Of a DNA stretch of 49,710 nucleotides, positions 18,048 through 38,995 are shown one piece after another. The translations under genes were made by a program, and so were the position numbers. The stretch's first letter is position 1; each line of letters starts with the position of its first letter. Source of the DNA: a virus (lineage: Duplodnaviria; Caudoviricetes); the IMG/VR virus record IMGVR_UViG_3300017658_000259, positions 1 to 49,710 of that record. One strand, 5' to 3'. The notes under the pieces are model-generated. The model saw only the letters and a list, made by a program, of their open reading frames with translations, ran no database searches and was not told the origin of the DNA.

Positions 18048-18241
18048 GGCGCAATCCTTTCTCTATGGGCGCATGGTGACTGCCCGGAGCAGCCGGCTGC
18101 CATGCGCGGGATGAATGGATGGGTTGGGCTACATCAGCGGCCCGACGTGCCGCTCAGGGCGCAAGGCGCCCGCCACGAGCGGCGGCCGTCCCGTGTGGAA
18201 CGGCCGCCGATCACGATGCTTCTCTCGGCTCGCGTCGCTTC

Positions 18242-19747: not shown

Positions 19748-19831
19748 GTCCTCTCAATGTTGAGTTGGGGGTACGCGTGCGCTTCGTAAGTGGCGCCGGA
19801 CGGCTTCGCCCGGCGCGGTAAAGCTTGCCGG

Positions 19832-20476: not shown

Positions 20477-20551
20477 CGAGCTATCCTCGTCGAGCGATTG
20501 GGCAGCGCGCGGCGACCGGCTCCCCCGCAGGGAGCCGCCGCGCGCGAGGTA

Positions 20552-21700: not shown

Positions 21701-21725
21701 CGGTTAATCCTTTCTATTGCGCTTG

Positions 21726-23953: not shown

Positions 23954-23964
23954 TATCGTGCACC

Positions 23965-25716
23965 TCAGGCGCGTGCCGGCCGGCTCCCCACCGGGGCTTC
24001 GGCGCGCGCAGCAGAAGATTCGCGGCCGCCGACGAACAGGATGGGACTCGACGCCAGGTACGTTTCCGGCGGCGGCTCGGCACCGCCGAGCGCCACGGCG
24101 ATGGTGAGCGCCGCAATGCCGTCGATCTTGCCCTTCGAGGACGCCTTGCACGGCATGTAGTTGCCGTTCTTGTCGCGGCGGATGGCGGCATTGCCGTTCA
24201 TCCACTTCAGCACCGGGTGCCCGCCGTGGTCGATGTTCTCCGACAGCACCGTGCGCTCCAGTGCCTTCGCCGGCCCGGACATCGACAGCATGCCGAAACG
24301 CACCCCCTGCACCGGCACACCGTCGTTGTGCAGCTTGGTCAGTACGCTGTGGGCGTTGAAGAGGTCGATGCCCAGACCCAGAACCTTGAACGTCGCGCAG
24401 TCGGCGTGCACCTGCTCCATGATCCAGTCATGGTCGGCCGCCTCGCCCGGCGTGGCGGTGAAGGCGCCCATCTTCTCCCACGACAGGAACGGTATGCGCG
24501 TCGTCTCGGCCTTGCGCCGCATCGGCACCTCCGGCCACCAGAAGCGGCACAGCACCTTCCAGCGCTCCGCCGCGTGCGTGGGTGGAAACCACCAGGTGAG
24601 GGCGTTGAAGTCCTGCGTCTCGGCGAGGTCGAGGCCGCCCCAGCACTCGCGGCCGGCGAGTTCCTCCTCCAGATCCTGCCAGCGCGGCACCGCCGGGTTG
24701 CGCGTGCGCAGTGCGCAGGCGTTCCATTTCTCCGGTGGCAGCCAGCGCTCGGAGCTGTTGACCCAGATGCCGAGGTGGTAGCACTTGAAGTCGTTTTCCT
24801 TCTTCGGCGACTGCTTCGCTTCGCGCGACGCCTTCGCCATGTACTCGGGGCGCGGCGACACCGGCATGCCCGGGTTGGCTTCCGCTTGCACCGCCGGATC
24901 GGTGATGTCGACCTCGGCCTTCGGATCCTGCGGCGCGCACCAGATGACGACCAGCGTCTCCGGGTCGTCGAAGGTGCCCTCGCAGATGCCGATGGACTCG
25001 TCCCACAGCGAGATGCCGTAACCGTCCTCGACACCGGCCGACGAGATCAGCCATTCCATCGGCTCGGTGCGCGAGGCCATCGCCTGGCGCACGAAGGTGT
25101 AGAGCCGGTCCGACGTCCACTCGTGCACCTCGTCGCCAATGAGGTACGTCGTCTTCAGGCCGTGCTTGCCGTGCGGCTTGCCGGTGAGCGGCTCGAACTT
25201 CGACAGCGTGGCGCGCGCGAACAGCGAGCCTTCGAACACCTCGTATTGCTCGGCGAGGTCCCCCGAGTAGGCGACCATCATCTTGGCCGCGTTGAAGACG
25301 ATCTCCGCCTGGTTGCCCGAGGCGGCGATCGAGTAGAGCTCGGCGCCTTTCACCGCGTCGCCGAGCAGGCAGAGGTGCGCGACCCCGGCCATCAGCTCGG
25401 TCTTGCCGTTCTTGCGCGGCATCCAGATGATGACGCGGCGGTAGAGGCGCGTGCCGTCGGCGCGCTTCCAGCCGAAGGCGGGCCGGATGATCCATTCTGC
25501 CTGCCAGGCCGCCAGCTCGAACGGCTTGCCGGCCCACGGGTCGGCGGTGAGGCGGCAGTAGCGCGGAAAGAAATCGACCGCTACCTGTGCGGTCGCCTCG
25601 TCGTAGTACGCGCCCTCGGGCTTGGGCCGCCACAGCGAGTGATAGCGCGGCTCGCCCGGCTCGAGCTTGCGCGCCGGATCCGGCTGGCGCGGATCGGCCT
25701 CGCTTTTCTCTGTCAT
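23965..25716 (-). CDS. terL: Terminase large subunit
   Basis: Walker A PRKNGKT, Walker B LIGDEVH, nuclease GLDLA and KIDG motifs. Confidence 0.97.
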   Translation of the reverse strand: MTEKSEADPRQPDPARKLEPGEPRYHSLWRPKPEGAYYDEATAQVAVDFFPRYCRLTADPWAGKPFELAAWQAEWIIRPAFGWKRADGTRLYRRVIIWMPRKNGKTELMAGVAHLCLLGDAVKGAELYSIAASGNQAEIVFNAAKMMVAYSGDLAEQYEVFEGSLFARATLSKFEPLTGKPHGKHGLKTTYLIGDEVHEWTSDRLYTFVRQAMASRTEPMEWLISSAGVEDGYGISLWDESIGICEGTFDDPETLVVIWCAPQDPKAEVDITDPAVQAEANPGMPVSPRPEYMAKASREAKQSPKKENDFKCYHLGIWVNSSERWLPPEKWNACALRTRNPAVPRWQDLEEELAGRECWGGLDLAETQDFNALTWWFPPTHAAERWKVLCRFWWPEVPMRRKAETTRIPFLSWEKMGAFTATPGEAADHDWIMEQVHADCATFKVLGLGIDLFNAHSVLTKLHNDGVPVQGVRFGMLSMSGPAKALERTVLSENIDHGGHPVLKWMNGNAAIRRDKNGNYMPCKASSKGKIDGIAALTIAVALGGAEPPPETYLASSPILFVGGRESSAARAEAPVGSRPARA

Positions 25717-25738
25717 TGGCTCGCATCGGCGAACGCCG

Positions 25739-26326
25739 CTAGTTGGGGCGTTGGGTCGCCGCGGCCTTCAATGCGCCCAGCGGGCCGTGGTGTTGCCCGG
25801 ACGCTGCCTTTTCGCCGTCGCCGGCGCCAGGCGGGTTGTTCTTGCCCTGGCCGATGGTGCGCTTCTCCATGTCGACGCGTGCCACCGGGTTGCCGGCGAG
25901 CAGTTGCTCGTCAGCGCGCAGATCGCGATGCAGATCGAGCATCAGCGTGTACTCGGGATTCTTGCGAATGATGCGCCCGCTGGAGCCGACGGTCGTGTAC
26001 GTCGGCTTCGGGTCGCGCTTCGCCAGTCGCTCCCACTCGGCACGGCGCTGACAGTGCCGCGCGATGAAGGCGTGATCGGAATTTTTGAACCAGATGCGCG
26101 TCGATGGATCGGCGAATTTCTCGCGCCAGATCTCGCGGGCCCGCTTGCCGAGCAGCCACGCCGGAGGCTCGGGAACATTGCGTGAATCGACCCCATCCGT
26201 GTTGCATGTCGTCTTGGGCTCCTGCTTGGCGCCGAGCTGCGCCTTCGTCCGCCCCTTGCGACGGCTCGGAAAACCCTGTGCCGCTTCAACTTCTGGCGCT
26301 TTCGGCTTCGGCCCCCGCCTGCCCAT
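25739..26326 (-). CDS. terS: Terminase small subunit, P27 family
   Basis: MGRRGPKPK, PPAWL..RAREIW, KNP, NPVAR motifs. Confidence 0.9.
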   Translation of the reverse strand: MGRRGPKPKAPEVEAAQGFPSRRKGRTKAQLGAKQEPKTTCNTDGVDSRNVPEPPAWLLGKRAREIWREKFADPSTRIWFKNSDHAFIARHCQRRAEWERLAKRDPKPTYTTVGSSGRIIRKNPEYTLMLDLHRDLRADEQLLAGNPVARVDMEKRTIGQGKNNPPGAGDGEKAASGQHHGPLGALKAAATQRPN

Positions 26327-26359
26327 TCGCCCCGCTCCTCAACGCTCGATGTTCACCCT

Positions 26360-26470
26360 TTGATTCCCCAACAAAAATTTGCGCCGGAAAAACCTGCGCC
26401 CAGAATTTTTCTTGGAACCGCGCGGTCTTGGCGTCGACGCGGCGATAAAAAACGACGCCCCCTACCCCTC
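26360..26470. other. Putative cos packaging region
   Basis: Non-coding gap between the HNH cluster and terS with A/T tracts, repeated TGCGCC and minus-strand GACCGCGCGG; the exact cut site cannot be determined. Confidence 0.5.
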
Positions 26471-26471
26471 A

Positions 26472-26711
26472 TCAGTGCTTCGTGCCGATGGGGCCATAGT
26501 AGGCGGGCAGGTCGCGCACCGTGCCATCGGCTGGGTGGACGTTGTCCGAGCCGCACGACGGGCAGCGCAGTGCGCTAGCCAGCGGCGCGTCACCAGCAAC
26601 GCGCATCTTACCGATGCGGCCCTTCCACCAGCACATGAGGCACGCCCAAACGGTCGACAGCGGATCGGCGGCGCCGATCTCCGCATCGATGCGTTTCACG
26701 ATCTCGTTCAT
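26472..26711 (-). CDS. Small zinc-ribbon protein
   Basis: CLMC and CPSC motifs; overlaps the HNH stop. Confidence 0.6.
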   Translation of the reverse strand: MNEIVKRIDAEIGAADPLSTVWACLMCWWKGRIGKMRVAGDAPLASALRCPSCGSDNVHPADGTVRDLPAYYGPIGTKH

Positions 26712-27106
26712 CCGAAGAACTCCGTCAGCTCGCGATCGAGGCGCAGCGCGGCATCGCCGATCTCGCCCTCGTCCCACCGCGCCTCGAGCACCTTCTTCAC
26801 GTGCTCGTGGCACCAGTTGCACAGCGCCTGCCAGTTGCTCCGTTCCCAGAACAGCCGCATGTCGCCACGGTGCGGAATGATGTGGTCGACGAGCTCGGTG
26901 GCACTCGTTAAGCCGTTCGCAGCACAGGACGCGCATAGCGGATGCTTGGCGATGTAGCCGGTGCGCGCCTGCTGCCAGCGCCAGCCGTAGCCGCGCGCCG
27001 CCGCGTGCTGGCGTCCATCGCGCTGCAACTCCTGACCAAGATCGTCACGCGGACGGAACAGCGGCGCCGGCGAATGCTGCCGCCGGAATGCCGGCGCCTT
27101 ACGCAT
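26708..27106 (-). CDS. HNH endonuclease (terminase-associated, HK97 gp74-like)
   Basis: RGY..RW, HPLC..C, VDHIIPH.G, NWQALC..CH motifs. Confidence 0.95.
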   Translation of the reverse strand: MRKAPAFRRQHSPAPLFRPRDDLGQELQRDGRQHAAARGYGWRWQQARTGYIAKHPLCASCAANGLTSATELVDHIIPHRGDMRLFWERSNWQALCNWCHEHVKKVLEARWDEGEIGDAALRLDRELTEFFG

Positions 27107-27254
27107 CGTCCCTTTGGCGCCTCGCCTCGTCGAGCGCCCATCCGAGCACGCGCGCCAGGCGCACCATGCCGGCGCGGTCGGCGAGACGCTTCAACTCGAC
27201 GATGATGTCGACGAGGTAGCCGGCGGTGTCGCGCTGGTTCGGTTCGCGGCCCAT
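27099..27254 (-). CDS. Small hypothetical protein
   Basis: MGREPNQ...; overlaps the HNH start. Confidence 0.55.
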   Translation of the reverse strand: MGREPNQRDTAGYLVDIIVELKRLADRAGMVRLARVLGWALDEARRQRDDA

Positions 27255-27319
27255 CTCTGTCGACACTCCGGCGCGGCGGCCGGCTGCGTGGTGCGCTGTC
27301 GCCTGGCCGATGTAAAATG

Positions 27320-27356
27320 CAAAAACCCGGGAGCGGCGGCGCCGGTCCCGGGTTCT
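27320..27356 (-). terminator. Intrinsic terminator in the late-operon leader
   Basis: AACCCGGGA...TCCCGGGTT stem followed by a T tract on the minus strand. Confidence 0.55.
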
Positions 27357-27565
27357 GTTCAATCGTCTCGCGACTGTATTTGCTTTATGCCTTTCCGGAG
27401 TCGGATTCGCTATCGCTTTTCGGCAACACCCAAGTCACAACCGACCGCTAGGCTGGCTTTGACATCATCGGTTGTCCACTGAATTTCCGCAATGTGAACA
27501 TATGGCGGTCAAACGGGCTGTTAAAGTCGCTTCGTTCAGCCCTCAGACGAGAGGAGATCCGGGCA

Positions 27566-27694
27566 ATGAGCGACAAGAAAAAAACCGTCTACCGCGACAG
27601 CACGGACGGGCAGTTCACAACCAAAAAGGATGCCGAGAAGCGCCCTCGGGAAACCGAGAAGGAGCGCGTGCGCGTTGGCAACCCGAAGAAGTAA
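27566..27694 (+). CDS. 42-aa basic protein with RDxxxGQF motif
   Basis: GAGGAG RBS; MSDKKKTVYRDSTDGQFTT; followed by a GC hairpin. Confidence 0.75.
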   Translation: MSDKKKTVYRDSTDGQFTTKKDAEKRPRETEKERVRVGNPKK

Positions 27695-27874
27695 CACGGC
27701 GTTGGCTCGGCGCCACCAACGGCGCCGAGCCGCCCCTTAGCCACCTTGCCGGTTCACGCTGATGGCCCGCGCCACTGGCTTCCCGTTTCACTCCGCCAAG
27801 GTTTCAACGCCGTCATAGCCGCCAGAGCCCTCCCAGCGCGAACGCTGGTAGTGGTCGCACGGAACATGCCCTGC

Positions 27875-28282
27875 TCACATGGCTTCCTGTATCCGCTTCT
27901 TGTACCAATCAACGATCTGGTCGATAGGGGGCCTATCGTTGACTACCCACAGAATCATCTCTTCTATCGCGCGCCCCAGATCTTCGCCACGCTGGCTTGG
28001 CAGCAAATCATATCCGCTCTGATCTATGAGCAATAACATCAGCAGAACAGTCGTGCGCTTGTTGCCATCGACGTACCCGTGATTCCGGGCCATCGATTCG
28101 GTGAAGGCAGCAGCCTTGTCCCAGATCCGGCGATAGTATCCTGTGTAGGGTCGTCCGAGCGCCGAAAGCACCAGGCTATAATCCCGGATGCCGTCGCGCC
28201 CACCGCCGACCGATAGAGCGCGGTCGTGCGCGGATGCCGCGTCGGCCTCGGTGAGGCGATAGTGGCGCCTACTTTTTGGCAA
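27875..28282 (-). CDS. doc: Doc/Fic-family toxin
   Basis: HGYVDGNKRT Doc motif; GIRD..LV.SAL.RP. Confidence 0.9.
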   Translation of the reverse strand: MPKSRRHYRLTEADAASAHDRALSVGGGRDGIRDYSLVLSALGRPYTGYYRRIWDKAAAFTESMARNHGYVDGNKRTTVLLMLLLIDQSGYDLLPSQRGEDLGRAIEEMILWVVNDRPPIDQIVDWYKKRIQEAM

Positions 28283-28493
28283 GTCTCTCCAGCGTGCCCT
28301 TGAACCTATCCATGGCCTTGTCCATGCTGCGGACAGACTCTTTCTTCGTAGTTATTTCGCGCGCTTCGCCGTTGCCCTTCTTAACGACCCACTTTTCGGC
28401 AATCGTCTTATCGTTGCGCGTTTTCGCGAGTACAAATTGCCCGCTGACAGCGTCGCGCGAGATGCGAATCTTGCTTTGATCCTTCTTCGTCAT
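28269..28493 (-). CDS. Putative antitoxin
   Basis: Small gene overlapping the doc start; C-terminal 'MDRFKGTLERLAK' resembles Doc-neutralising helices. Confidence 0.7.
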   Translation of the reverse strand: MTKKDQSKIRISRDAVSGQFVLAKTRNDKTIAEKWVVKKGNGEAREITTKKESVRSMDKAMDRFKGTLERLAKK

Positions 28494-28715
28494 GCCGCGA
28501 CTATAGGCCATTTTTCAAAGACGTCTAATCTTGCGCGCATGCCGTCGTCGGTTCCCATGGACCACTCCTATCACTGCCAGGCCGGCACCGTGGTCGTCTC
28601 CCGGCGCAGAGCGTTGCTCATCCTCGGCCTTAAACGCGCGCCGACCGCCGCCGTTTCAGGCCCAGCACTTCTTCAGCCAGCCGATCCCGCACGGCACGAA
28701 CACCGCCAGCACCTG

Positions 28716-28982
28716 CTAGAGGCCAAGATTCTTCCGTTCCTCATCGTCCATCCGGTTGACCGCCACGGGCCACTCGAACCGGACACCAGAGTACTCGAAA
28801 TTGTGCGTCAACTCTGTCGACCCTCGCCTCGTGTAGATGTTGCCGGCGGTACCCACCATCTTTTCGAGCATCTCGCCGTCTTCGGTTGATAGTCGTATCG
28901 ACGCCGGCCCGCGAATGCCGAACTGCTGCAGTTCCCGCGAAAGTCGGGCCATCAGCGTCATCACTTTTTGATGCTGGACCAT
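28716..28982 (-). CDS. Hypothetical protein
   Basis: GGAGG RBS before MVQHQKV. Confidence 0.6.
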   Translation of the reverse strand: MVQHQKVMTLMARLSRELQQFGIRGPASIRLSTEDGEMLEKMVGTAGNIYTRRGSTELTHNFEYSGVRFEWPVAVNRMDDEERKNLGL

Positions 28983-29208
28983 CCGTGTTTCCTCCGCGTT
29001 GCCCCAGGGACCGTGATCAACACCAGCCCGGTCTAGGCTGCCGGCTTTTCCATCACGGCCACGTAAAACACCGAGCCATCTCTTTGCTTGGCTATGTCCA
29101 TCGTCTTGACGCGCCAATCGTGCGACGCGGCCACATTTAGTTGTTTTTCTAAATCGTCGGCCGAGCCGGAGTGTACCACCTTGTACTGCATCGTTCCTCC
29201 GATTCAGA

Positions 29209-29529
29209 TTAAGTCCGCCAGCCACTAGGCCCAGCGCGCACGCCCTGGATCGCCCTGTCGATGGGCACGTCGGCGCCACCGCCACCGGTAGCAACCGGCG
29301 GCGCGCCGGCCCCCGCGCTTTGCGTCGCCTTCCAATCCCGGTGCCACGCGCGCAGCCGCCCCAGGATTGCCGCCCACGCCCAGAATGAAACGCCAAACGA
29401 CATGCTGAGGCAGGCCGCGATCTCATGAATGGCGCTCTTGGCCCCCAACAGATAGCCGATGCCGAACAACACCCACAGTGCCCCGGCGCACCCGAGAAAG
29501 CTTTCCATGGCAATCCCCCCAAAGACCAC
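29209..29529 (-). CDS. Small two-TM membrane protein
   Basis: Two hydrophobic helices. Confidence 0.55.
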   Translation of the reverse strand: MVFGGIAMESFLGCAGALWVLFGIGYLLGAKSAIHEIAACLSMSFGVSFWAWAAILGRLRAWHRDWKATQSAGAGAPPVATGGGGADVPIDRAIQGVRAGPSGWRT

Positions 29530-29531
29530 CG

Positions 29532-29873
29532 CTAGGCGCGCAACCCGCCGGCCGTCGTCTCAATCCAACCGGCGTGGTCGTACCACTGCCGAACAAAGCG
29601 ACCGGCGAAGAATGGATAAATGAGCGCCGCGAGGCCGCCGGTGATGAGCGAGAAAAGCAGCCAGAACAACGCATGCTGCCACACGCCCTTATAGGCAAAA
29701 TAGAACGGCCCGAAGAGCAGGCACCAGAGCCACGAGAAGGGCGTGGAGCCCTTTTCCACACGCCCGGTGGCCGGGTTCGCGAAATACGTCGTCGGAATGC
29801 CGAATGAAACGACGATTGCCGCAAGCAACACGATGTGTGCGGCGGCCGCCACGACCGTCTGATGTGAGTTCAT
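29532..29873 (-). CDS. Membrane protein, DUF2628-like
   Basis: FSWLWCLLFGPFYFAYKG and final Y...GW motifs. Confidence 0.7.
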   Translation of the reverse strand: MNSHQTVVAAAAHIVLLAAIVVSFGIPTTYFANPATGRVEKGSTPFSWLWCLLFGPFYFAYKGVWQHALFWLLFSLITGGLAALIYPFFAGRFVRQWYDHAGWIETTAGGLRA

Positions 29874-29882
29874 CTTTTTCCC

Positions 29883-30134
29883 CTATCCCGCCAGCCAACG
29901 CGCTACGGCATACGTTCCGTACGCCAAGCCACCGAACATCGCGATGTTGAACACCAGACTGACGAAGTAGCCGCGGAACCCGACGAGCGGATCAGAAGCA
30001 GCCGGGATCATGTTCATGCCCGCCGCCAGGACTGCGATGGCTGGGCCGACCCACCACGGCCAACCAAGAAAACCGCAAGCGGCCGAAACAACCAAAGATA
30101 AAGTGACGAGCATTGTGACGCTGGATGCTGACAT
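29883..30134 (-). CDS. Small multi-TM membrane protein
   Basis: Three hydrophobic segments. Confidence 0.55.
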   Translation of the reverse strand: MSASSVTMLVTLSLVVSAACGFLGWPWWVGPAIAVLAAGMNMIPAASDPLVGFRGYFVSLVFNIAMFGGLAYGTYAVARWLAG

Positions 30135-30143
30135 CCCCGCACG

Positions 30144-30467
30144 CTATCCCTGCACAACGGAACGGACCAGCGCCGCCGCGAGGCTGTCGACGTCCGCCGG
30201 TTCGAAAACTTGGATGCTGCCGGCGCCATACCCTCGGTCGAGCCGATAGTCCTCGTTCAGCGGATAGGAGCGGCCACTGCGCATGCGCTCAATGCGGCGA
30301 TGGTACTCAAATTCGTCGCTCTGCACGCGGCACAGATCGCGTACCAGGCATCCGTCGCTGCGCGACTCACCTTTGACGCATAGCGCTCCAGGCTCGCCAG
30401 CGCGCAGGATGCAGAACACGGTACCCTCTGGCAGCGCGAGGAATTCCTGCCATGGCACGATGCGCAT
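30144..30467 (-). CDS. Phage hypothetical protein
   Basis: GGAGG RBS; MRIV..EFLALPEGTVF..LCVKG motif typical of phage proteins. Confidence 0.7.
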   Translation of the reverse strand: MRIVPWQEFLALPEGTVFCILRAGEPGALCVKGESRSDGCLVRDLCRVQSDEFEYHRRIERMRSGRSYPLNEDYRLDRGYGAGSIQVFEPADVDSLAAALVRSVVQG

Positions 30468-30480
30468 CGGGCTGCCTCCC

Positions 30481-30681
30481 CTACCGCTTCGTCCGGCGCG
30501 CTATCGCCTCGAGCAGCAGCTCGCGGATAACCGCCGTGCGATCACCCTGACCGTGCCGATCGGCAATGATGCCGTCGACGACCTGCAGTATGTCTTCGGG
30601 AAGACGAATGGCAATCTGCTTCATGGGCTGATCCCCTAATCTCGGACGCCCGACTGATCGCGTTTTGCCTCGGTTGCTCAT
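30481..30681 (-). CDS. Ribbon-helix-helix (CopG/Arc-like) regulator
   Basis: GRPR N-arm, IAIRLPEDIL beta strand, RTAVIRELL helix. Confidence 0.85.
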   Translation of the reverse strand: MSNRGKTRSVGRPRLGDQPMKQIAIRLPEDILQVVDGIIADRHGQGDRTAVIRELLLEAIARRTKR

Positions 30682-30752
30682 GCTCCAGAATTATGTATCC
30701 CGACACACCCCGTAAAATCACGAAAATGTGAGGGGATAAGAAACCGGCTTCA

Positions 30753-30781
30753 TTGAATTTCGTATCCCACCGGGATATATA
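30753..30781 (+). promoter_or_regulatory. Sigma70 promoter with a palindromic operator in the spacer
   Basis: TTGAAT-17 nt-TATATA; TATCCC-acc-GGGATA at 30763-30777. Confidence 0.7.
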
Positions 30782-30874
30782 TACTTTGTGCAAGACGCGA
30801 ACCGGCGCGGCGGCCTGATGGATGGCCACCACCGCACCGGGGAGGGGCCCACGAAGCTCCCTGTGATCGAGACG

Positions 30875-30939
30875 GACGAAGGCGAAACGGCGCGCCCAGC
30901 GCCGTCGCGGGGTCGCTCCCCGCCTGACGAGCCTTCGTC
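30875..30939 (+). ncRNA. Type II hammerhead ribozyme
   Basis: GACGAAGGC-GAAA-CGGCGC(gccca)GCGCCG-TC-GCGGGG(tcgct)CCCCGC-CTGACGA-GCCTTCGTC: complete core and three perfect stems; GUC cleavage after 30906. Confidence 0.95.
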
Positions 30940-30971
30940 AGCGTGTTAGGCTCCCATCCATGGAGAAACGC

Positions 30972-31205
30972 ATGTCGATCGACACTCTCGGCTACGTCAA
31001 GCGGCTCACGGCCGCTGGCATCGAGCAGGCAAAGGCTGAGGCGCACGCCGAAGCCCTGCGGGACCATCTCATCCCGCAGCTTGCCACGAGCCACGACCTT
31101 GAAATGCAGACGAGCCGGTTTGAGGCAATGCTCTGGAAACACACCCTGGCGATCATTGCCACGGTGCTCGCAACCGGGTCGTTCCTCCTGCGCTTCAGCC
31201 ACTAG
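30972..31205 (+). CDS. DUF1640/CCDC90-like small membrane-anchored protein
   Basis: IDTLGYVKRLTAAG..QAKAEA, LAT..DL, C-terminal TM helix; GGAG RBS. Confidence 0.8.
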   Translation: MSIDTLGYVKRLTAAGIEQAKAEAHAEALRDHLIPQLATSHDLEMQTSRFEAMLWKHTLAIIATVLATGSFLLRFSH

Positions 31206-31221
31206 GCGCTAACACCGCGAG

Positions 31222-31256
31222 CCCCCGGCGCTGCGCAAACAGCGTCGGGGGTTTTT
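31222..31256 (+). terminator. Intrinsic terminator
   Basis: CCCCCGGCGCTG-cgcaaa-CAGCGTCGGGGG-TTTTT. Confidence 0.8.
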
Positions 31257-31348
31257 CTATCCCGACACCTCGAAACGAGTTGGCCCGACACGGTGCGCAA
31301 ACACCGGCCGGGCCATTTGCGATAGCTCCCATCCAAAGGAACGATCAC

Positions 31349-32470
31349 ATGACCATCGATAACATGGGCGGCCGCTTGGCCGCAACGGTGTGCGCCTGCG
31401 CGCTCGGCGCCGGCGGCACGTCTCTGCTGTTCGGCGACGTCATCTTCGGCGCCGCCGACTTCACGCAAAAGCACTTTCAAACGGTTACCATCGTCATTGC
31501 CACGACGACGGCGTGGATGGCGACGACGACGGCCTTCAAAAGCCGCCACTGGCTCGCCGGCCTCGGCTTCCTCGTGCTGGCGCTCGCCGGCTCGGGCGTC
31601 ATCGTCTGGAACTCCCTCGGCCGTCAGACCGAGGGGCAGATGCTTTCCGCCGACGACCACGACAAGGCCGTCGAGAAGCGCGGCGAGCTCAGCCGCAAGA
31701 AGGCGGACGCCGAGCAGACGCTCAGCTCCCGCCAGAAAGAAGCCGACGCCGAATGCAAATCCGGCGAAGGCCCCAAGTGCCGCGGCGCCCGCGCCGTGGT
31801 CGATTTCTGGAACGGCAACGTCGCCGGACTGCAGGCGCAGCTCGACGCGTTGAAGGTGAAGCCGGCCGATCCCTCCGCCGAGGCGCTCGGCAACCTCGCC
31901 AACGCCATCGGCCGCAACGGCCGCAAGGCGAAGGCGCTCAGCATGCTGGTAATGCCCTACCTGATCACCATCCTGTTCGAGTTCGGGTTCACCATGGCGC
32001 TGCACTACGTGTTCCGGGCCTCGCGCCAGCCGAAGACTTCCCGTTCGGGCCAGATCGCTGCCGGTTCGGATAAGCCGGCGCTGACGCAGATCGGTCCGGT
32101 CAGCGATGCCGAACTGTCCGCCCTGCGCGAGCGGTTCGTGCTGGACAGTCCGGCGCCGGGACAGTCCGGCCGCGGCGGCCGGCTCCCCGCAGGGGAGTCG
32201 CCGCGGCCCAATAAGGATGGCGGCGTCCGGACGGTCCGGCCGAATCCGGACGGTCCGCGCCCGACGAGCGGACTGTCCAAGGGCGAGCTGCTCGAGCACG
32301 TGCTGACGGAGCTGGCGCTCGGGCGGACGGTCCCCTCGCAGCAGGCGCTCGCCGGACTGTCCGGCGCGCGCAAGCAGCGGGTGTCGGATTGGGTGCGCGA
32401 GTGGGAGGCGGACGGTCTCATCCCCGCCCGCACTGTCCGCGGGCGCTGCAAGAGCCTCGTGGCCGGCTAA
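31349..32470 (+). CDS. Multi-TM, coiled-coil protein with C-terminal HTH
   Basis: Three N-terminal TM helices, coiled coil with CxxGxGPKC, a fourth TM, then SQQALAGLSGARKQRVSDWVREWE HTH; AAAGGA RBS. Confidence 0.8.
   Translation: MTIDNMGGRLAATVCACALGAGGTSLLFGDVIFGAADFTQKHFQTVTIVIATTTAWMATTTAFKSRHWLAGLGFLVLALAGSGVIVWNSLGRQTEGQMLSADDHDKAVEKRGELSRKKADAEQTLSSRQKEADAECKSGEGPKCRGARAVVDFWNGNVAGLQAQLDALKVKPADPSAEALGNLANAIGRNGRKAKALSMLVMPYLITILFEFGFTMALHYVFRASRQPKTSRSGQIAAGSDKPALTQIGPVSDAELSALRERFVLDSPAPGQSGRGGRLPAGESPRPNKDGGVRTVRPNPDGPRPTSGLSKGELLEHVLTELALGRTVPSQQALAGLSGARKQRVSDWVREWEADGLIPARTVRGRCKSLVAG
32111..32438. repeat. Cluster of GGACNGTCC palindromes
   Basis: Perfect copies at 32143, 32159, 32229, 32248, 32270, 32325, 32354; one-mismatch copies at 32111, 32410, 32430. 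Confidence 0.9.
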
Positions 32471-32524
32471 GCGGCGTGGCGGCCGGCTCCGCGCAGCGGA
32501 GTCGCCACGCCGCACTAAAAAACG

Positions 32525-32558
32525 CCCCGGCGCTGGTGCCCCCAGCGCCGGGGTTTTT
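32525..32558 (+). terminator. Intrinsic terminator, copy 1 of a duplicated hairpin
   Basis: CCCCGGCGCTGGTGCCCCCAGCGCCGGGG-TTTTT. Confidence 0.8.
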
Positions 32559-32645
32559 CATGCGCGGGGCCGGTCTTGACTCCGGCGCGCGAAAAACTAC
32601 CTCGCCCGATGTGGTTCAACCGTCGCTGAGAAAGGAGATTCGGTC

Positions 32646-32999
32646 ATGGCGACAGCATCCTGTGTTTCCAAACCAGCCCCCTCACCGACAGCCGGCGCCT
32701 TGGCCTTTGGAGACGGACACAAGCCGCCGCGTATGCCGCGCGCCGCCAGTGGATCGTCCGGCCGGCGCTTCTGCAGGATCTACCGGGAGGACAGCCATTG
32801 GATCGTGCACCTCGCACCGGGCGCATGGCCTTCCAACAGCGCAGACGACGACTGCCGGCTGCGCTTTGAGACGCTCTCGGCTGCGATCGGGTACGCCATC
32901 GGCAAAGGCCTCAGCTATCGCGTGCTGCATGAGCCGCCCGTCACGCAGCCCATCTGGCTGTCCAAGGCCAACGCACCTCGACACGTTGACGGCCGGTGA
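32646..32999 (+). CDS. NDUFS4 (complex I 18-kDa subunit)-like protein
   Basis: CRIYR...W...RLRFETLSAAIGYAIGKGLSYRV resembles the ETC_C1_NDUFA4 family; AAGGAG RBS. Confidence 0.6.
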   Translation: MATASCVSKPAPSPTAGALAFGDGHKPPRMPRAASGSSGRRFCRIYREDSHWIVHLAPGAWPSNSADDDCRLRFETLSAAIGYAIGKGLSYRVLHEPPVTQPIWLSKANAPRHVDGR

Positions 33000-33021
33000 C
33001 GTCGCAACTCGGCGCAACCCA

Positions 33022-33054
33022 CCCGGCGCTGGTGCCCCCAGCGCCGGGGTTTTT
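33022..33054 (+). terminator. Intrinsic terminator, copy 2
   Basis: CCCGGCGCTGGTGCCCCCAGCGCCGGGG-TTTTT, identical to copy 1. Confidence 0.8.
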
Positions 33055-33191
33055 GCTTTCTCGCCGTAGTGCTAGGCTTGCGGCAGCCAAAGGCGGGACG
33101 AGAACCAAGCCTCAAACGCGAGCCAAATCTCCCACGAGAGCCATACCTGAATCGCGAAGGCGGCCCCGGCGCTTCACGGTGTCGGGGCTTT

Positions 33192-33428
33192 CTATTTCTC
33201 CGGGCTCCACAGCGCCTCCTCGCCCTCGTACAGCAGGTAGCCGTCGCGCGCCAGCGCCGCGCGCACGTCCGGCTTCAGGTTGGCGACCAGGCCGCGCCCG
33301 CCATGCCAGGGGCCACGCGAGCGGGCCGCCTGCGGCACGCCATCGAAGCCACCCTCGTAGCAGATCAAATATAGCCCGCGGTGCCGGTGCGAGCGGTTCT
33401 TCTCGTAGTGCGTCGGTTCCTTGCCCAT
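33192..33428 (-). CDS. Hypothetical protein
   Basis: 78 aa, coupled to the upstream ORF; hairpin downstream. Confidence 0.55.
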   Translation of the reverse strand: MGKEPTHYEKNRSHRHRGLYLICYEGGFDGVPQAARSRGPWHGGRGLVANLKPDVRAALARDGYLLYEGEEALWSPEK

Positions 33429-33431
33429 GGC

Positions 33432-33605
33432 CTAGCCCCAGATGAAGAAGCCGATGGCGCCGACGACGCCGGCGATGTCGGGCCGCAGCCCGGCGATGTC
33501 GACCACCGCCGTCGGCTCCCAGACGAGGCCGCCCGGCAGGTTGCTGCCGTCCTGGCGCATGGTGACCGCCACCTCGCGCCCGCGCCGGAATTCGTATGCC
33601 CGCAT
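33432..33605 (-). CDS. Hypothetical protein
   Basis: MRAYEFRRG..DGSNLP; 57 aa. Confidence 0.55.
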   Translation of the reverse strand: MRAYEFRRGREVAVTMRQDGSNLPGGLVWEPTAVVDIAGLRPDIAGVVGAIGFFIWG

Positions 33606-33622
33606 GCTGTACCCCTGATTGC

Positions 33623-33646
33623 TTGACTCGTGTTCCCCCTTTGTTC
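33623..33646 (+). promoter_or_regulatory. Alphaproteobacterial LexA (SOS) box overlapping a promoter
   Basis: -35 TTGACT at 33623; GTTC-ccccttt-GTTC at 33632-33646 (GTTC-N7-GTTC). Confidence 0.8.
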
Positions 33647-33658
33647 TACGCCCAGCGC

Positions 33659-33967
33659 ATGAGCCGGCGCAAGGGCGAGCTGACCCAACCCACAATCGAC
33701 CGCCAATGGCCGCATCAGGTGGCGATCCCGGCCGAGCTGCTGCGCGGCGCCGGCTATGTCACCGTGCATCTGTTCTGCGAAGGGCTGTCGGCGTGCCGCC
33801 GCAACGCGCGTCTGGTACGCTGCGGCCGCGAGTTCGTCGTCTTCTGCTTTGCCGAGCCCGAGCACGCCGACCGGTTCCGCGCCCGCTTTGACGGGGAGGC
33901 GATGACGCCCCAGCAACGGCGGGACCTCGACGACCGGCGCCGCAACCGCGGCATCGCCCGCCGCTAG
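33659..33967 (+). CDS. SOS-regulated hypothetical protein
   Basis: MSRRKGE..IDRQWPHQV..FCFAE..HADRFRARFDGE. Confidence 0.75.
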   Translation: MSRRKGELTQPTIDRQWPHQVAIPAELLRGAGYVTVHLFCEGLSACRRNARLVRCGREFVVFCFAEPEHADRFRARFDGEAMTPQQRRDLDDRRRNRGIARR

Positions 33968-33973
33968 CGGCCT

Positions 33974-34687
33974 TTACCGCGCGCCGCGCATCTTCTCGAA
34001 GCGCTGCCTGTTGGCGGCCTTCCACGCCGGGCACTTGGTCTTGACCCAGTCATCGCAGCGCCCAGAGCGGTAGGCGGCGTCGGTGCGCTTCGACACGATG
34101 CCCTCCAGCCCCAGCTTGCACGCGTGCGCCAGCACCACCTCGCCGTCGCCCTCGATGTGCTCGACGAACTTGATCAGCTGCGCACCGCGCGTGTTGTCGA
34201 GCAGCGCCTCGAGCACCCGTTTGCGGTCGATCAGCGCCGCGCCGCGCAAATCGAAGCCATCCAGATAGAGAAGGTCGAAGGCGTAGTAGACGAGCCGCGC
34301 CGTGACGCGGGTCGGCTTGGTGGTGATCGCCGCCGGCAGCTCGTAGAACACCGGATGCCCGCGGGCGTCGACCGCCACCAGCTCGCCGTCGAGGATGATG
34401 TTGTTGACCGGCAACGCCCGCACCGAGGCGGCAATGGTCGGCATGCGCGCCGCCCAGTCGTTGCCGCGCCGGGTGTAGACGTGCGCCGCGCCGTCGGCGA
34501 ACTGCGCCTGCGCCCGGTAGCCGTCGTGCTTGATCTCGTGCAGCCAGCCCTCGCCGCTCGGCGGAACCCTACGCTCGATGGGGTTGCACGGATCGACGAA
34601 GCCGGGGAACGGCGCCGCCTTGGCACCGTCGACGACGCGGCCGAGGAAGCGGGCCGACGAGCGATGGGTCGAGCGCCGCGGCGTCAA
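33974..34687 (-). CDS. ATP-dependent DNA ligase, adenylation domain only (LigD/LigC-like)
   Basis: EIKHDGYR, LDGELV, AFDLL, EGIVSK, WVKTK motifs; TTG start inferred. Confidence 0.9.
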   Translation of the reverse strand: MTPRRSTHRSSARFLGRVVDGAKAAPFPGFVDPCNPIERRVPPSGEGWLHEIKHDGYRAQAQFADGAAHVYTRRGNDWAARMPTIAASVRALPVNNIILDGELVAVDARGHPVFYELPAAITTKPTRVTARLVYYAFDLLYLDGFDLRGAALIDRKRVLEALLDNTRGAQLIKFVEHIEGDGEVVLAHACKLGLEGIVSKRTDAAYRSGRCDDWVKTKCPAWKAANRQRFEKMRGAR

Positions 34688-34926
34688 TGGCGCTCCCCGT
34701 CCTTGTCGACGCCGGTCTTGAAGCCGCCCGGCGGCCGCGGCGGATGATCGGCGTCGGCCTTGTTGCAGACCGGGCACGGCATCCCGGCCCCGCATTCACA
34801 GCCACGCGGCGTCGACCTGTCCCAGGGCGAGAAGGGATGGTTCTCGCACACCCAGCCGACGTCGAAACAGTTGCCGCACTTGGGGACCGGCCTCAGGTTC
34901 GGGTCGGGCCGCAGGAACTTGAACAT
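34684..34926 (-). CDS. Cys-rich zinc-binding small protein
   Basis: CxxC..WVCENH..CxCG.GMPCPVC. Confidence 0.7.
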   Translation of the reverse strand: MFKFLRPDPNLRPVPKCGNCFDVGWVCENHPFSPWDRSTPRGCECGAGMPCPVCNKADADHPPRPPGGFKTGVDKDGERH

Positions 34927-35099
34927 CGCACTGCCACTCCAGCAGCTGGTGACGCGAACCGGGTGCCGAGAACAGCACCATCAAGGCCGTCATTTTGTGT
35001 CCGCCAGCGCAACCGGGTCAACGTATTGGGCGCTATTCCTGGCTTGCGCGCGCGAGTTGCATGCGCCAAACTCCACACGGGAGTTGGGGATTTTCATGT

Positions 35100-35453
35100 A
35101 TGCGTAGTCACCTATGGGCGCTTCTCGCGCTCGGGCTCGCCGGCTGTGCCGGCCGGGCGCCAGAGTTGGTGCCGGTGGTCCAGTCTATCGATCAGCAGAT
35201 GACCTGCGACCAGATCGTCGCCGAGATCAAAGCGAACAACGCGCGCATGAGCGATCTCGCGACCGAGGAAGGCTGGAAGGTGACGCAGAACGTTGCCGCG
35301 GGCGTCGTCGGCCTGTTCATTTGGCCGGTCTGGTTCGGCATGGATTTTCAGGACGCGGCCGGAAAAGAAGGCAAGGCGCTGTCGCAGCGGAATGAATATC
35401 TGGGCGGCCTCGCGCGCGAAAGATGCGGGCATCAAACCCAGGCTTACCAATAA
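35100..35453 (+). CDS. Lipoprotein
   Basis: Lipobox LAGC, MTCDQI, internal hydrophobic segment, terminal Cys. Confidence 0.75.
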   Translation: MRSHLWALLALGLAGCAGRAPELVPVVQSIDQQMTCDQIVAEIKANNARMSDLATEEGWKVTQNVAAGVVGLFIWPVWFGMDFQDAAGKEGKALSQRNEYLGGLARERCGHQTQAYQ

Positions 35454-35499
35454 GCGAAGGCGCGGTCATCCGCGGCTTACGCGGGCAACTAGCGACCCG

Positions 35500-35829
35500 C
35501 TATCTGGCCGGCTCGTCGCCGCCGGACGGCGGAGCGGTGCTGACGCCGGCAAAGAATCGGACGTCGTCACCGATATTGTCGAGCGCCACCTTGAGGCTCG
35601 CTCGCGCCTCGGCCTCCGTACCGCCCCAGCCGACGACCGAGATCCAATAGCCGCCGTCGCCATTGATGAGCACGTAGGCGCTGACCTCCGCCTCGACGCC
35701 GCTGCCCGCCCGCGACGGCCTCACCTCCACCTCGCCGACCTCGACGGCGGGCCCCAGGTACGGCCTGCGCGGCCCCATCTCCCGCTCGCGCCGGTATCTC
35801 GTCAGGTCGATGGGCTCGTTGTCTGCCAT
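35500..35829 (-). CDS. Hypothetical protein
   Basis: MADNEPIDLTRYR; overlaps the SRAP stop. Confidence 0.6.
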   Translation of the reverse strand: MADNEPIDLTRYRREREMGPRRPYLGPAVEVGEVEVRPSRAGSGVEAEVSAYVLINGDGGYWISVVGWGGTEAEARASLKVALDNIGDDVRFFAGVSTAPPSGGDEPAR

Positions 35830-36488
35830 CACGCCGCCAGCCGGTCCTCGCGCTCGGCGCCCGATTGCACGATGCGCATCTGCTCGGCGGCATAGCTGCG
35901 CGCCAGCTTGAAAGCTTCCGGCGGCGGCGCCGACAGCCAGGTATCGAAGTCGGCCGGGTCGGTGATCAGTACCGGCATGCGCTCGTGGTTGATGGAGACG
36001 GTGAGCGCGTTCGGCTCCGTCGTCATGAAGGCGAACACCTCCTGCTCGACTGTGTCGCCGTTCTTCTTCAACGGCCCGCGGTAGCGCGTCCACACGCCGG
36101 GGAAGGCGAACAGCGGACGCTGCTCCGCGCCGTCGAGCGCGAACCAGTGCCACGTCGCCGGCTTCTCGCCCTTCGGCTCGCAGTAGGACGACGCCGGCAC
36201 CAGGCAGCGGCGCTGCTCGAAGGACGCCTTCCAGAACGGGCTCGCGAGAATCTTGTCGTCGCGCACGTTGGTGACGCGCCGCGGCGCCCGCTCCTTCTGC
36301 AGCAGCACGAAACCCCAGTTGAGCATGACGAGCTCGCGCTCGCCGTCGGCCGCCTGGCGCACGACGGGCGCCTGATAGCCGGGAAAGATCGCCGGCAGCG
36401 GATCGAATGCGGCGGCGCGGTTGTGCGACACGCCGAACAGGCGGCGGATGGCTTCGTGGTTTCTGGTGCAGGAATAGAGGTTGCACAT
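35829..36488 (-). CDS. SOS response-associated peptidase (SRAP/HMCES, abasic-site crosslinking)
   Basis: N-terminal MCNLY, RCLVPA, HERMPVL motifs. Confidence 0.95.
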   Translation of the reverse strand: MCNLYSCTRNHEAIRRLFGVSHNRAAAFDPLPAIFPGYQAPVVRQAADGERELVMLNWGFVLLQKERAPRRVTNVRDDKILASPFWKASFEQRRCLVPASSYCEPKGEKPATWHWFALDGAEQRPLFAFPGVWTRYRGPLKKNGDTVEQEVFAFMTTEPNALTVSINHERMPVLITDPADFDTWLSAPPPEAFKLARSYAAEQMRIVQSGAEREDRLAA

Positions 36489-36806
36489 AGACGGCCTTAA
36501 CCTTTCTCCGTAGCCGGACAGCAACTATATCTAGGGTGCTCTCGTTAGATAGAAACCCTCGATTTAGTAACGCGTAAGGACCCGCTGCGATGGCCGCCCG
36601 TGCCTACTGAAAGGGCTTTCTCCGGCTCTCCCTCGTCTCGATATCGGTCGAAGTCTACAGGAGCGCGGCTTCATCCGCCGAATTACGGGCAAGGACCGCG
36701 CGATCGACGTCGTCCGGCCGGTGAGCAGGTTCGCTGCCTTCCGGTTCGACCATCGAAAAAAGCGGCTCTTGCAATGGCGGCCGCGCGAGCGGCTGACCGA
36801 CTAAGC

Positions 36807-37766
36807 TCACCGCCTCGGGTAATTAGGGCGAGCTGCGTAGAGTTGTCGGATCGTATCCCGGTTAAACGAGAGAAGCCCAGCTTTCTTGGCGTAGTAGTCG
36901 ACCACTGACGATACCTCCGTCGAGTCCGCCTTCAGGTTCACGGCGCGAAACCAACCATCGTGCTGGCCAATCGAATACACGACGACATCTCCCGTCTTCG
37001 TCGTCATCAGTCTGATTTTGCGCTCGTGCAGAAGCTCCCTGATGGGGTCGCACGGATGGTCATACTGGTTGTCGTAATTAGACGAACAGATCGCCAGTTG
37101 GGGGGCAATCTTCGACAGGAAGGGCCGGTTCGTAAAGCCGTTGTCAGCGCCATGATGACTTAGGATCATCACGTCCGTCTCGCGCTGCAAAAACGTCTGG
37201 CTGCGCAAGTAGCTAGAAACGTTCGGGCTTTCTACATCGCCAAGGCTGAGGACATTGAAGCTACCGCTCCTGAACAGCTTCACGGTCGAGTTATTGTTGG
37301 AGCAGCATGGATCGATGCTCCTCGGATGGTAGAATACGTTGTTGAAGGCGAGCGCTTCGGCCTCCTTCAGGCCGGTAATGTAGGCTGGTGAGACGTACTG
37401 GACTGTGACCGACCGGTTGCTCGAACGCTGCACCGCTTCATAGCCCGCTATCAGCTCGGCGCACTTCTTTCCGTTGTCGGAAGAAGGAAGATATCCGGGC
37501 GCCTCAATGTTTCGCGGACTCAACAACGCGAGAAGGTTAGTGAGCTCGCCGGCGGCGCAGTGATCCGCGTCCCAGCTGGTGATGTGCAGCGTGTCCGCAA
37601 CCTCAACCTTGCACACCGCCATCTCCGCAATGAGCGTCGGCTTGTTGACCTCTGTTAGTCGCCCTTCGATGACGGTGAAATGACCATCTGCGAAGTACGA
37701 GAACGACGATCCGGCTGTGCCAAGTTGGTAGGCCCGAAATCGCGTGACTTTGGCGGTCATGACCAT
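36807..37766 (-). CDS. ComEC/Rec2-like MBL-fold hydrolase
   Basis: HITSWDADHC, NNNS.V, LGD, SHHG, YDHP motifs; AGGAG RBS. Confidence 0.8.
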   Translation of the reverse strand: MVMTAKVTRFRAYQLGTAGSSFSYFADGHFTVIEGRLTEVNKPTLIAEMAVCKVEVADTLHITSWDADHCAAGELTNLLALLSPRNIEAPGYLPSSDNGKKCAELIAGYEAVQRSSNRSVTVQYVSPAYITGLKEAEALAFNNVFYHPRSIDPCCSNNNSTVKLFRSGSFNVLSLGDVESPNVSSYLRSQTFLQRETDVMILSHHGADNGFTNRPFLSKIAPQLAICSSNYDNQYDHPCDPIRELLHERKIRLMTTKTGDVVVYSIGQHDGWFRAVNLKADSTEVSSVVDYYAKKAGLLSFNRDTIRQLYAARPNYPRR

Positions 37767-37855
37767 GGCAAACTCCTGCGCTAGCGGCAGGGGCTCCGGC
37801 TTTTTGTTCTTAAAATGACCACAACCGTCGAGAAGCTCTAACCCCACGGCATGCA

Positions 37856-38995
37856 ATGCAAATTGGTCTGGCCCTCTCGGGAGGCGGTCTTCGGGCCGCC
37901 GCCTTTCATTCCGGCGTGTTGCGACGCCTCGCTGTGCAGGGGGAGATGGAAAATGTATCGACCATTTCAACGGTTTCCGGTGCCAGCCTGATGCTAGCTG
38001 CGGTCTTCCGGTTCAGTGACCTTCTGTGGCCATCGTCTCAACGGTACCTAGAGGACGTGTATCCGCGGCTCCGAATCCTCCTAGCCACTTTAGACTTGGC
38101 AAGCATCGGGACGCTTAGGTGGCGGGACGTTGCGCGTTCACACGTGCGCCTCTTCAATCACCGCGCAAGCGTTCTCGTCGATCTGCTAGAGACGCGCTGG
38201 CTCATCGAAGGTCGCCTTCCGGACCTGCCAGTGCGGCCCGTGTGGTGGATCAATGCTACGTCTCTGCCCACAGGGAAGAATTGGCGTTTCTCGCGGGGCG
38301 AGATGGGCGATTGGAAGTTCGGTCGACACTATGCTCCGACTGCCAAGATCGCCGAGGCCGTCGCCGCTTCAGCAGCCGTACCGTACGTCATCGGCGCACT
38401 AAAACTTTCGCTTCCGACGAGCGGCTGGTACCGCACGGATCCGGCCACGAAGCAGCCAGTCGAAGCGATTTCGGTGGCGTCCGCCGTTCGCTTGTGGGAC
38501 GGCGGTGCGTATGAGAACCTCGGCCTGGAGCCTCTGTTCAAAGCACCCGGCACGTTGACCGGCTGTGACTTTCTCATCTGCTGTGACGCCTCAACCGCAC
38601 TCGGGCCGCAGCTATCGCCCGTGCAATCGTTGATCAGAGGGGACCTCGGCGCGCCGCGCCTCTTCGACATCGCTGCGGATCAGATCCGCTCGCTGCGAGC
38701 GCGTTCCCTAATCGGCGCCTTAGCGTCCGGCGTCTTAGCAGGGGCATACGTGCGCATGGGAAACAGTGTGGAGGTGATCGACCGCAAAACATCGCGAACG
38801 CGGGAGACCTATGCTCATCTCCTGGGCGAGGCCGAAGTAGAGGCGGCTTCAACAAGTCCGACCCACCTTCGTGCCCTAACCATCCCCGCCTTCGACACGA
38901 TTGCGCGCCACGGCTTTGAAGCAGCTGATGCTACCCTTACTGCACACCGGCCGAGTGAATTTACGAGTAGCTTTCGTTGGCCGAGTGCAGCGTGA
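37856..38995 (+). CDS. Patatin-like phospholipase
   Basis: LALSGGGLRA, nucleophile STVSGAS, ASAAVP, DGGAYEN motifs. Confidence 0.92.
   Translation: MQIGLALSGGGLRAAAFHSGVLRRLAVQGEMENVSTISTVSGASLMLAAVFRFSDLLWPSSQRYLEDVYPRLRILLATLDLASIGTLRWRDVARSHVRLFNHRASVLVDLLETRWLIEGRLPDLPVRPVWWINATSLPTGKNWRFSRGEMGDWKFGRHYAPTAKIAEAVAASAAVPYVIGALKLSLPTSGWYRTDPATKQPVEAISVASAVRLWDGGAYENLGLEPLFKAPGTLTGCDFLICCDASTALGPQLSPVQSLIRGDLGAPRLFDIAADQIRSLRARSLIGALASGVLAGAYVRMGNSVEVIDRKTSRTRETYAHLLGEAEVEAASTSPTHLRALTIPAFDTIARHGFEAADATLTAHRPSEFTSSFRWPSAA

Follow-up and report, generated by a model that had tools for sequence, protein, structure and literature searches.

We propose, with moderate confidence, that a type II hammerhead ribozyme carried in an optional cassette of a temperate phage would cut its transcript 66 nt before a DUF1640-like gene, giving the message a protected 5' end. 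The window analyzed here is the whole virus record (49,710 nt), and its gene content is that of a lambdoid temperate phage, including an HK97-type capsid, a cI/cro-like pair, a replication initiator, a helicase, a ligase and a Doc-like gene. A Fic/Doc-like gene and a small upstream gene, likely a Phd-Doc-type pair, are located at 27875-28511. An identical copy of 4.2 kb around the hammerhead locus lies inside a 175-kb metagenome contig (L012), suggesting that the phage resides as a prophage. GenBank phages gave no real match to the window DNA or to the small DUF1640-like protein, whose closest named homologs come from Hyphomicrobiaceae, so that the host is likely an alphaproteobacterium.

The hammerhead is located at 30875-30939 on the plus strand. 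Its stem II (30875-30883 with 30931-30939; 9 bp) encloses the GAAA core (30884-30887), stem III (30888-30893 with 30899-30904; 6 bp plus an A-U pair), the GUC (30904-30906), stem I (30907-30912 with 30918-30923; 6 bp) and the catalytic core CUGACGA (30924-30930), with the predicted cut between 30906 and 30907. Every element named in the original prediction, namely the CUGACGA/GAAA core, the 9/6/6-bp stems and a GUC ending at 30906, was found in its place. The CUGANGA core, the GAAA and the NUH thus sit in a three-way junction that is the minimum-energy fold of 30875-30939 (-40.5 kcal/mol; z = -4.04; 0/200 shuffles equal), with stems I and III closed by loops and stem II open, which is the type II arrangement. 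A scan with a type II pattern matched the window once, with no second type II hammerhead, and matched none of 200 shuffled windows even when stems of 3 bp were allowed. The Infernal check with Rfam models, suggested from the outset, gave a match below threshold: RF02276 (Hammerhead_II) matched over the whole model (31.7 bits; E = 2e-4), but the gathering score of 37 was not reached, and at gathering level Rfam returned nothing in the window. The bits are lost around stem I and the tail, where the alignment of the model differs. In this region we also identified a predicted pseudoknot that the original prediction had not described, in which loop I (CGCU, 30914-30917) pairs with the tail (AGCG, 30940-30943; 4 bp, span 30914-30943, plus strand). 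The complement is 4 bp in the window and L002 and 3 bp in L001, and no compensatory change was seen. A pseudoknot between loop I and the 3' tail is the usual tertiary contact, present in most type II hammerheads (Perreault et al., 2011; PMC3088659). By pattern, fold and homology, the motif is a real, canonical type II hammerhead, for which self-cleavage at 30906/30907 is predicted.

We compared 59 loci encoding relatives of the small protein, after excluding L003 and L004 as duplicates. A hammerhead was present at three of them (L001, L002 and L012, the last identical to the window), and the predicted cut always falls 66 nt before the start codon. No hammerhead was found in the DNA fetched for the other 56, most of which are distant (the closest are 51-67% identical) and some of which extended less than 300 nt upstream. 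Both of the distinct related phages with the gene at 69% identity or more (2/2) keep the 66-nt spacing, which upholds the placement of a hammerhead in the 5' leader of a small membrane-protein gene. Among the three distinct copies (window, L001 and L002), 95.8% of cells are paired. The core, stem I and the tail are invariant in the three phages despite diverged upstream leaders and regulators; stem II has two compensatory pairs and, in L002, a U-U at its base, which corresponds to the tolerated natural variant U10.1-U11.1 (PMC3088659). Three of the four pseudoknot pairs are invariant and one is broken in L001. With three sequences only, hammerhead covariation was not above the column shuffle (136/500). 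A strict hammerhead pattern had no match in a sample of 401 genomes (family of G001), and a tail-built pattern matched five loci, of which three were discarded as chance matches inside other genes.

The locus is a variable array in which the cassette (ribozyme plus gene) is optional, as judged from related phages. L116 has the same RHH gene, operator half-sites and left neighbours, and its promoter runs directly into the gene for a 373-aa protein, with neither a hammerhead nor a DUF1640 gene at the locus. At the same locus in L117, three other type II hammerheads separate small genes, the last one preceding the 373-aa homolog; these hammerheads (about 1790-2420) have a CUAG/AUG internal loop in stem III. 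In L001 and L002, the cassette lies beside unrelated divergent genes that have no Pfam match, presumably encode helix-turn-helix proteins, and face promoters with other palindromes in the spacer. By this comparison, a divergent regulator, a promoter and, in most cases, the 373-aa gene make up the constant frame of the locus; ribozyme-plus-gene cassettes are gained and lost inside that frame, and the RHH gene goes with the promoter and not with the ribozyme cassette. The fixed unit of RHH regulator, ribozyme, small RNA and membrane peptide that had been envisaged is not supported, given the RHH gene without a cassette in L116, the cassette with other regulators in L001 and L002, and the 56 of 59 loci without a hammerhead in the DNA fetched. 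As to the order RHH-hammerhead-DUF1640, its second half persists at the same distance in L001 and L002, but the RHH gene is replaced.

The divergent RHH gene (30481..30681, minus strand) encodes a putative repressor of 66 aa. The regulator assignment was supported by phrog_4738 (transcriptional repressor; E = 1.7e-5) but lay below the cut-off for PF01402 (14.3 bits versus 20.5; E = 0.04); the L116 homolog, 70% identical, is above this cut-off. An RHH search returned a single, unrelated locus. A leftward RHH promoter, predicted by reading the sequence (30689..30717, minus strand), carries the half-site GTATCCC (30695-30701) in its spacer, and the leftward promoter of L116 has this half-site with equal spacing. 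GTATCCC occurs three times on the plus strand of the window, two of them at this locus. The predicted rightward promoter, TTGAAT-N17-TATATA (30753..30781, plus strand; start near 30788), has a palindromic operator (30762-30778) in its spacer. At the corresponding position, L001 (TTGACT-N17-CATTAT) and L002 (TTGCAG-N16-TATAGT) show more clear-cut promoters, and the spacer of each contains a palindrome of its own. The sigma70 promoter with a palindromic operator thus found support in its palindrome and in the relatives, but a consensus scan of the window listed neither this promoter nor the terminator described below, so that both rest on reading and on the relatives. The RHH repressor would act on the putative operator half-sites in its own and the divergent promoter, which are conserved in L116.

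The leader (30788..30874, plus strand) has two hairpins (30802-30840 and about 30845-30862) and forms the 5' part of the predicted 119-nt released fragment. A 53-codon frame over the leader (30788-30949) was considered as a gene and dropped, since the frame is broken in L001. The leader sequence is similar in L001 and mostly different in L002, and the two-hairpin layout, with CGAA and GGAG linkers, is found in all three copies. Compared with shuffles, the fold of the released leader has z values of about 0.07-0.08 in the window, -3.08 in L001 and -1.68 in L002. A structured RNA of about 120 nt had been expected; release of a leader of about 119 nt and a 5'-OH message is indeed predicted, but the fragment of the window is no better structured than shuffles.

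Downstream of the ribozyme, the Shine-Dalgarno sequence GGAGA (30962-30966, plus strand) is predicted to form a 4-bp hairpin with CUCC just upstream (30951..30966), a region conserved in L001 and L002. The DUF1640/CCDC90-like gene (30972..31205, plus strand) encodes a 77-aa protein, a length above that usual for type I toxins, with 30972 as the most likely start codon because homologs begin there. The protein has one predicted C-terminal membrane helix (hydrophobic segment 58-76, marginal, hydropathy 1.62), its monomer model contains helices only (pTM 0.40), and it reads LATSHD where homologs have LATK.D. We identified 28 homologs at 49-97% identity, 13 of them with a precomputed PF07798 match; the PF07798 cut-off (33.5 bits) was not reached by an 81-aa reading of the protein (16.7 bits) or by longer homologs (26-28 bits). 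PDB matches to CCDC90B were not significant, searches of PADLOC, NCBIfam and PDB did not help to characterize the small protein, and a literature search on DUF1640 with phage found no description. One RNA-library contig of 234 nt covers 30985-31218 at 99% identity or more, such contigs giving no strand, start or end; the RNA run with a share of 0.07 had no cover elsewhere in 18000-37990, where missing cover proves nothing, so that neither cleavage nor selective expression follows from these data.

The gene is followed by a terminator-like hairpin with five T after it (31218..31257, plus strand; -29.8 kcal/mol), which has equivalents in L001 and L002. Gene and closing hairpin are both present as originally described, the former below the PF07798 cut-off and the latter unlisted by the consensus scan. 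The hairpins at 31218-31257 and 31281-31316 share the loop CGCAAA, and those of L001 both contain GTTCGTGC. Upstream of the 373-aa gene, L116 and L117 have a similar hairpin of two stems. This downstream gene (31349..32470, plus strand) encodes a predicted 373-aa membrane protein with a weak C-terminal helix-turn-helix match, has homologs 72-73% identical in L116 and L117, and in L001 likewise comes after the cassette; in the Atlas, its neighbours are clusters without names, most of them viral. It would be the conserved target of the putative RHH-controlled promoter. The DUF1640-like and 373-aa genes have the upstream motif GCTCCCATCCA in common (30950-30986 and 31326-31360), with first codons reading MSID and MTID, and in L002 both copies read GCTCCCTACCA; the motif may be a mark left by local duplication when the cassette was inserted. 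Two identical 33-nt hairpins, each with a T tail, lie at 32526-32558 and 33022-33054, either side of a 117-codon frame, and related copies sit after the 373-aa homolog in L064, L116 and L117.

Six of the 59 homolog loci (L014, L015, L016, L017, L043 and L044) have a GTTC-N7-GTTC box 76-81 nt upstream of the gene, compared with a background of 0.002 per 150 nt. These loci are chromosomal, have no hammerhead and represent about two lineages. GTTC-N7-GTTC is the alphaproteobacterial LexA motif (PMC8565304), and in L014 the DUF1640-like gene directly precedes an imuA-like gene. On the basis of these boxes and this neighbour, the host version is probably an SOS gene, which suggests that this DUF1640 subfamily is SOS-regulated. 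The sole GTTC-N7-GTTC box in the window is located at 33632-33646, in an accessory region near the ligase gene.

A second feature absent from the original prediction is a core clamp (30924..30941, plus strand). The tail UCGUCAG (30935-30941), which corresponds to the 3' arm of stem II plus two bases, is the exact 7-nt complement of the core CUGACGA and is invariant in the three copies. Fold predictions for the 3' cleavage product place the clamp behind stem I, which begins at the first base, with a clamp pairing probability of 0.87-0.95 and the first base paired at 0.98-0.99 in the three copies.

Clamp enrichment was tested on two hammerhead sets that had not been selected for the clamp. The two broader patterns used, which match an estimated 230 and 3,200 viral stretches, were sampled at 130 and 139 loci, respectively; structure filters and removal of near-duplicates kept 117 of 151 and 120 of 147 matches. 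Watson-Crick clamps of at least 6 bp were found in 7/117 and 4/120 hammerheads, versus 0.29 and 0.31 expected and 0/500 shuffles (11/237 versus about 0.6 for both sets together), and a distant control window gave none. Most type II hammerheads have no clamp. Among TCAG-bearing tails, the variable core base N7 covaries with its partner, in 10 C-G, 0 C-A, 6 U-A and 2 U-G combinations (two rows with a T partner omitted; Fisher p = 0.0015, an optimistic value since some clamp-bearing examples are related). When TCAG was counted loosely, the second set showed no enrichment (7/120 versus 6 in the far control). Nor did clamp-bearing hammerheads show an excess of core-like copies 5' of stem II (5/13 versus 24/104; 1/7 versus 24/113), which makes the long stem II of the window hammerhead a special case. 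Taken as sequence patterns, these data show signs of selection on the clamp. Among other loci, L101 carries clamp tails on five type II hammerheads, some of them reaching 9 bp plus an extra base after the core, the L080 contig carries at least four type II hammerheads in tandem, and the third hammerhead of L117 bears the clamp tail CAUCAG.

The position of the ribozyme is a common one. A pattern of stem I and core retrieved 39 viral loci (L081 and L082 excluded as duplicates); on reading by eye, most proved to be hammerheads of type II or III with a ribosome-binding site after them. In the two broader sets, a Shine-Dalgarno sequence and an ATG (at least 30 codons) lie within 60 nt 3' of the hammerhead in 77/117 and 67/120 cases, compared with 1 and 2 in an opposite-strand control, so that 144 of 237 sampled phage type II hammerheads stand just before a ribosome-binding site. 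This arrangement is published: hammerheads are known to flank prophage genes, and cleavage, both in vitro and in E. coli, was shown for three clusters (PMC3088659).

In the mechanism we propose, RNA would start near 30788 from the repressor-controlled promoter. The hammerhead is predicted to fold via the 9-bp stem II and the 4-bp pseudoknot and to cut after C30906; from sequence order, stem II should be complete before the end of the clamp is transcribed. After the cut, stem II would be the sole helix joining the two products. The freed core is then predicted to pair with the UCGUCAG tail, which it can do by invading stem II because the core and the 5' arm of that stem share GACGA; stem II would be displaced, the 119-nt leader released and re-ligation blocked. 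The message would then carry a 5'-OH and begin directly in two stacked hairpins, leaving no 5' nucleotide unpaired. A paired 5'-OH end is a poor substrate and entry point for 5'-end-dependent nucleases and exonucleases, and such an end would here slow 5'-end-dependent decay and make expression independent of the leader, as in RiboJ. A literature search on this paired-5'-end argument found no paper.

The main rival reading places the action of the clamp before cleavage, as a switch: the RNA would be bistable, and a protein, an antisense RNA or the speed of transcription would decide cutting and downstream output. We regard this as possible, though on balance unlikely. In the fold predictions, the clamp competes with stem II before cleavage too, which counts against its proposed role in product release, and active and blocked folds lie close in the full leader. 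The precursor forms stem II with a probability of 0.53-0.95 in the window, 0.02-0.74 in L001 and 0.06-0.55 in L002, the pseudoknot being uncounted. The gap between active and blocked folds is 4.4 kcal/mol in the window (minimal RNA, active fold favoured), 2.9 in L001 and 0.0 in L002, where the blocked fold dominates in two of three lengths tested, and in the test set, 13/13 TCAG-bearing hammerheads have a blocked fold that is either better than the active fold or at most 1.5 kcal/mol worse. Perreault et al. (2011) raised regulated cleavage as a possibility (PMC3088659). On the other side, the analysis identified neither a ligand nor a protein site nor an antisense partner, the pseudoknot omitted from the energies favours the active fold, and stem II is finished before the clamp end is transcribed.

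Release of a protected message must also be weighed against a reading in which cleavage is an off signal. Here the intact leader, by sequestering the anti-Shine-Dalgarno strand, would leave the ribosome-binding site open, and the cut would reduce translation or set off decay, so that less membrane protein is made. In 5/6 comparisons, cleavage is predicted to make the ribosome-binding site less open, by 0.5-2.2 kcal/mol, which counts against a cap that protects an otherwise active message and keeps this second alternative alive, improbable as we consider it. In one predicted fold, leader GGGAG can pair with CUCCC (30951-30955), and both are present in the three copies; cleavage of glmS leads to decay (PMC6765202). 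The differences in openness are small, however, and reversed in one comparison, the Shine-Dalgarno hairpin is predicted alike before and after cleavage, and the 5' end of the product is paired.

Equally doubtful is a reading in which the released 119-nt RNA is a functional small RNA, serving as an antitoxin or exclusion factor paired with a toxic membrane peptide under RHH control. The conserved two-hairpin leader layout speaks for it, as does the complementarity, in the window, of ATGGATGG in the first hairpin to CCATCCAT beside the Shine-Dalgarno sequence (8 nt, a length reached by 7% of shuffles); the LexA-type box of the six chromosomal homologs would fit a protein that slows growth or division. 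Against it, shuffled sequences form a duplex between the leader and the beginning of the gene that is as stable as the real one in 9%, 22% and 48% of cases for the three copies, none reaching the 5% level, and antisense pairing of the leader with the next gene downstream reached 2% in L001 only, at a site unlike that of the window and with the L001 target one base off. The lack of structure in the window fragment, the RHH gene without cassette and cassette without RHH gene, and the 56/59 homolog loci without a hammerhead (in a search for hammerheads only) also argue against this reading, the last of them against an obligate toxin-RNA linkage. The consensus scan listed nothing promoter-like that could drive an opposite-strand RNA across the gene, and PADLOC gave no match of note. 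A toxin and an antitoxin made one-to-one from a single RNA would lack the usual antitoxin excess. The toxin-antitoxin or exclusion module proposed in the original prediction consequently has little support. Finally, we consider it very improbable that the hammerhead is a remnant of an operon punctuated by ribozymes, as in L117, with no remaining effect on expression: although cassettes are gained and lost at the locus and L002 combines its U-U with a predicted dominant blocked fold, that mismatch is a tolerated variant, and the core, stem I, tail and compensatory pairs have been kept despite diverged leaders and regulators.

The reading we prefer, a cut that leaves the message with a protected 5' end, can be set against known systems. 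Type II hammerheads (RF02276; PMC3088659) have the same permutation, core consensus, pseudoknot between loop I and 3' tail and place upstream of a small phage gene; the window differs in having a single copy behind a repressor-controlled promoter instead of a cluster, a long 9-bp stem II, a core-complementary tail and a sub-gathering Rfam score. L117 has the same layout as the clustered prophage hammerheads that flank single genes (such as the Agrobacterium ardA locus; PMC3088659), with inconstant neighbour genes, whereas the window has one hammerhead and its message would end at the terminator-like hairpin and not at a second ribozyme. RiboJ, a synthetic insulator, likewise places a hammerhead between promoter and ribosome-binding site, which takes off the leader and gives the message a 5'-terminal hairpin, and it raises mRNA about twofold and protein two- to tenfold (PMC6206723). 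RiboJ is, however, an engineered plant satellite RNA ribozyme with an added hairpin, whereas the second hairpin in the window would come from the ribozyme's own core, so that the likeness is a working analogy and not kinship. The glmS ribozyme also cleaves itself within a bacterial 5' leader and yields a message with a 5'-OH, but it belongs to another class, needs a metabolite and lowers expression by cleavage (PMC6765202); no ligand was identified for the window hammerhead. The encoded protein resembles DUF1640/CCDC90-like proteins (PF07798; PMC4786415) in a putative N-terminal head, a candidate beta-layer motif like aliphatic-A-T-K-polar-D/E and a predicted C-terminal membrane helix, and differs from them in its length of 77 aa, its very short stalk, the K to S change in the motif and its score below the Pfam cut-off.

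Judged from its sequence, the window hammerhead is a well-formed example of a known ribozyme class, its setting is of a kind already described, and the clamp is what it adds. No description of a core-complementary tail was found in the literature searched, which was mostly non-subscription and included the text of PMC3088659 and PMC12192606; the supplementary alignments of PMC3088659 may include such tails. More speculatively, and rather improbably in our estimate, a subset of phage type II hammerheads may be natural switchable ribozymes by virtue of such a tail; here the switch would set the dose of a host-derived, SOS-type membrane protein moved from LexA control to that of a phage repressor and a ribozyme. 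For what self-cleaving ribozymes do in bacteria and phages, a question treated as open in the literature (PMC6765202), this locus offers a natural comparison set, with the cassette present, absent (L116), replaced by three other hammerheads (L117) or present as a variant predicted to be mostly blocked (L002).
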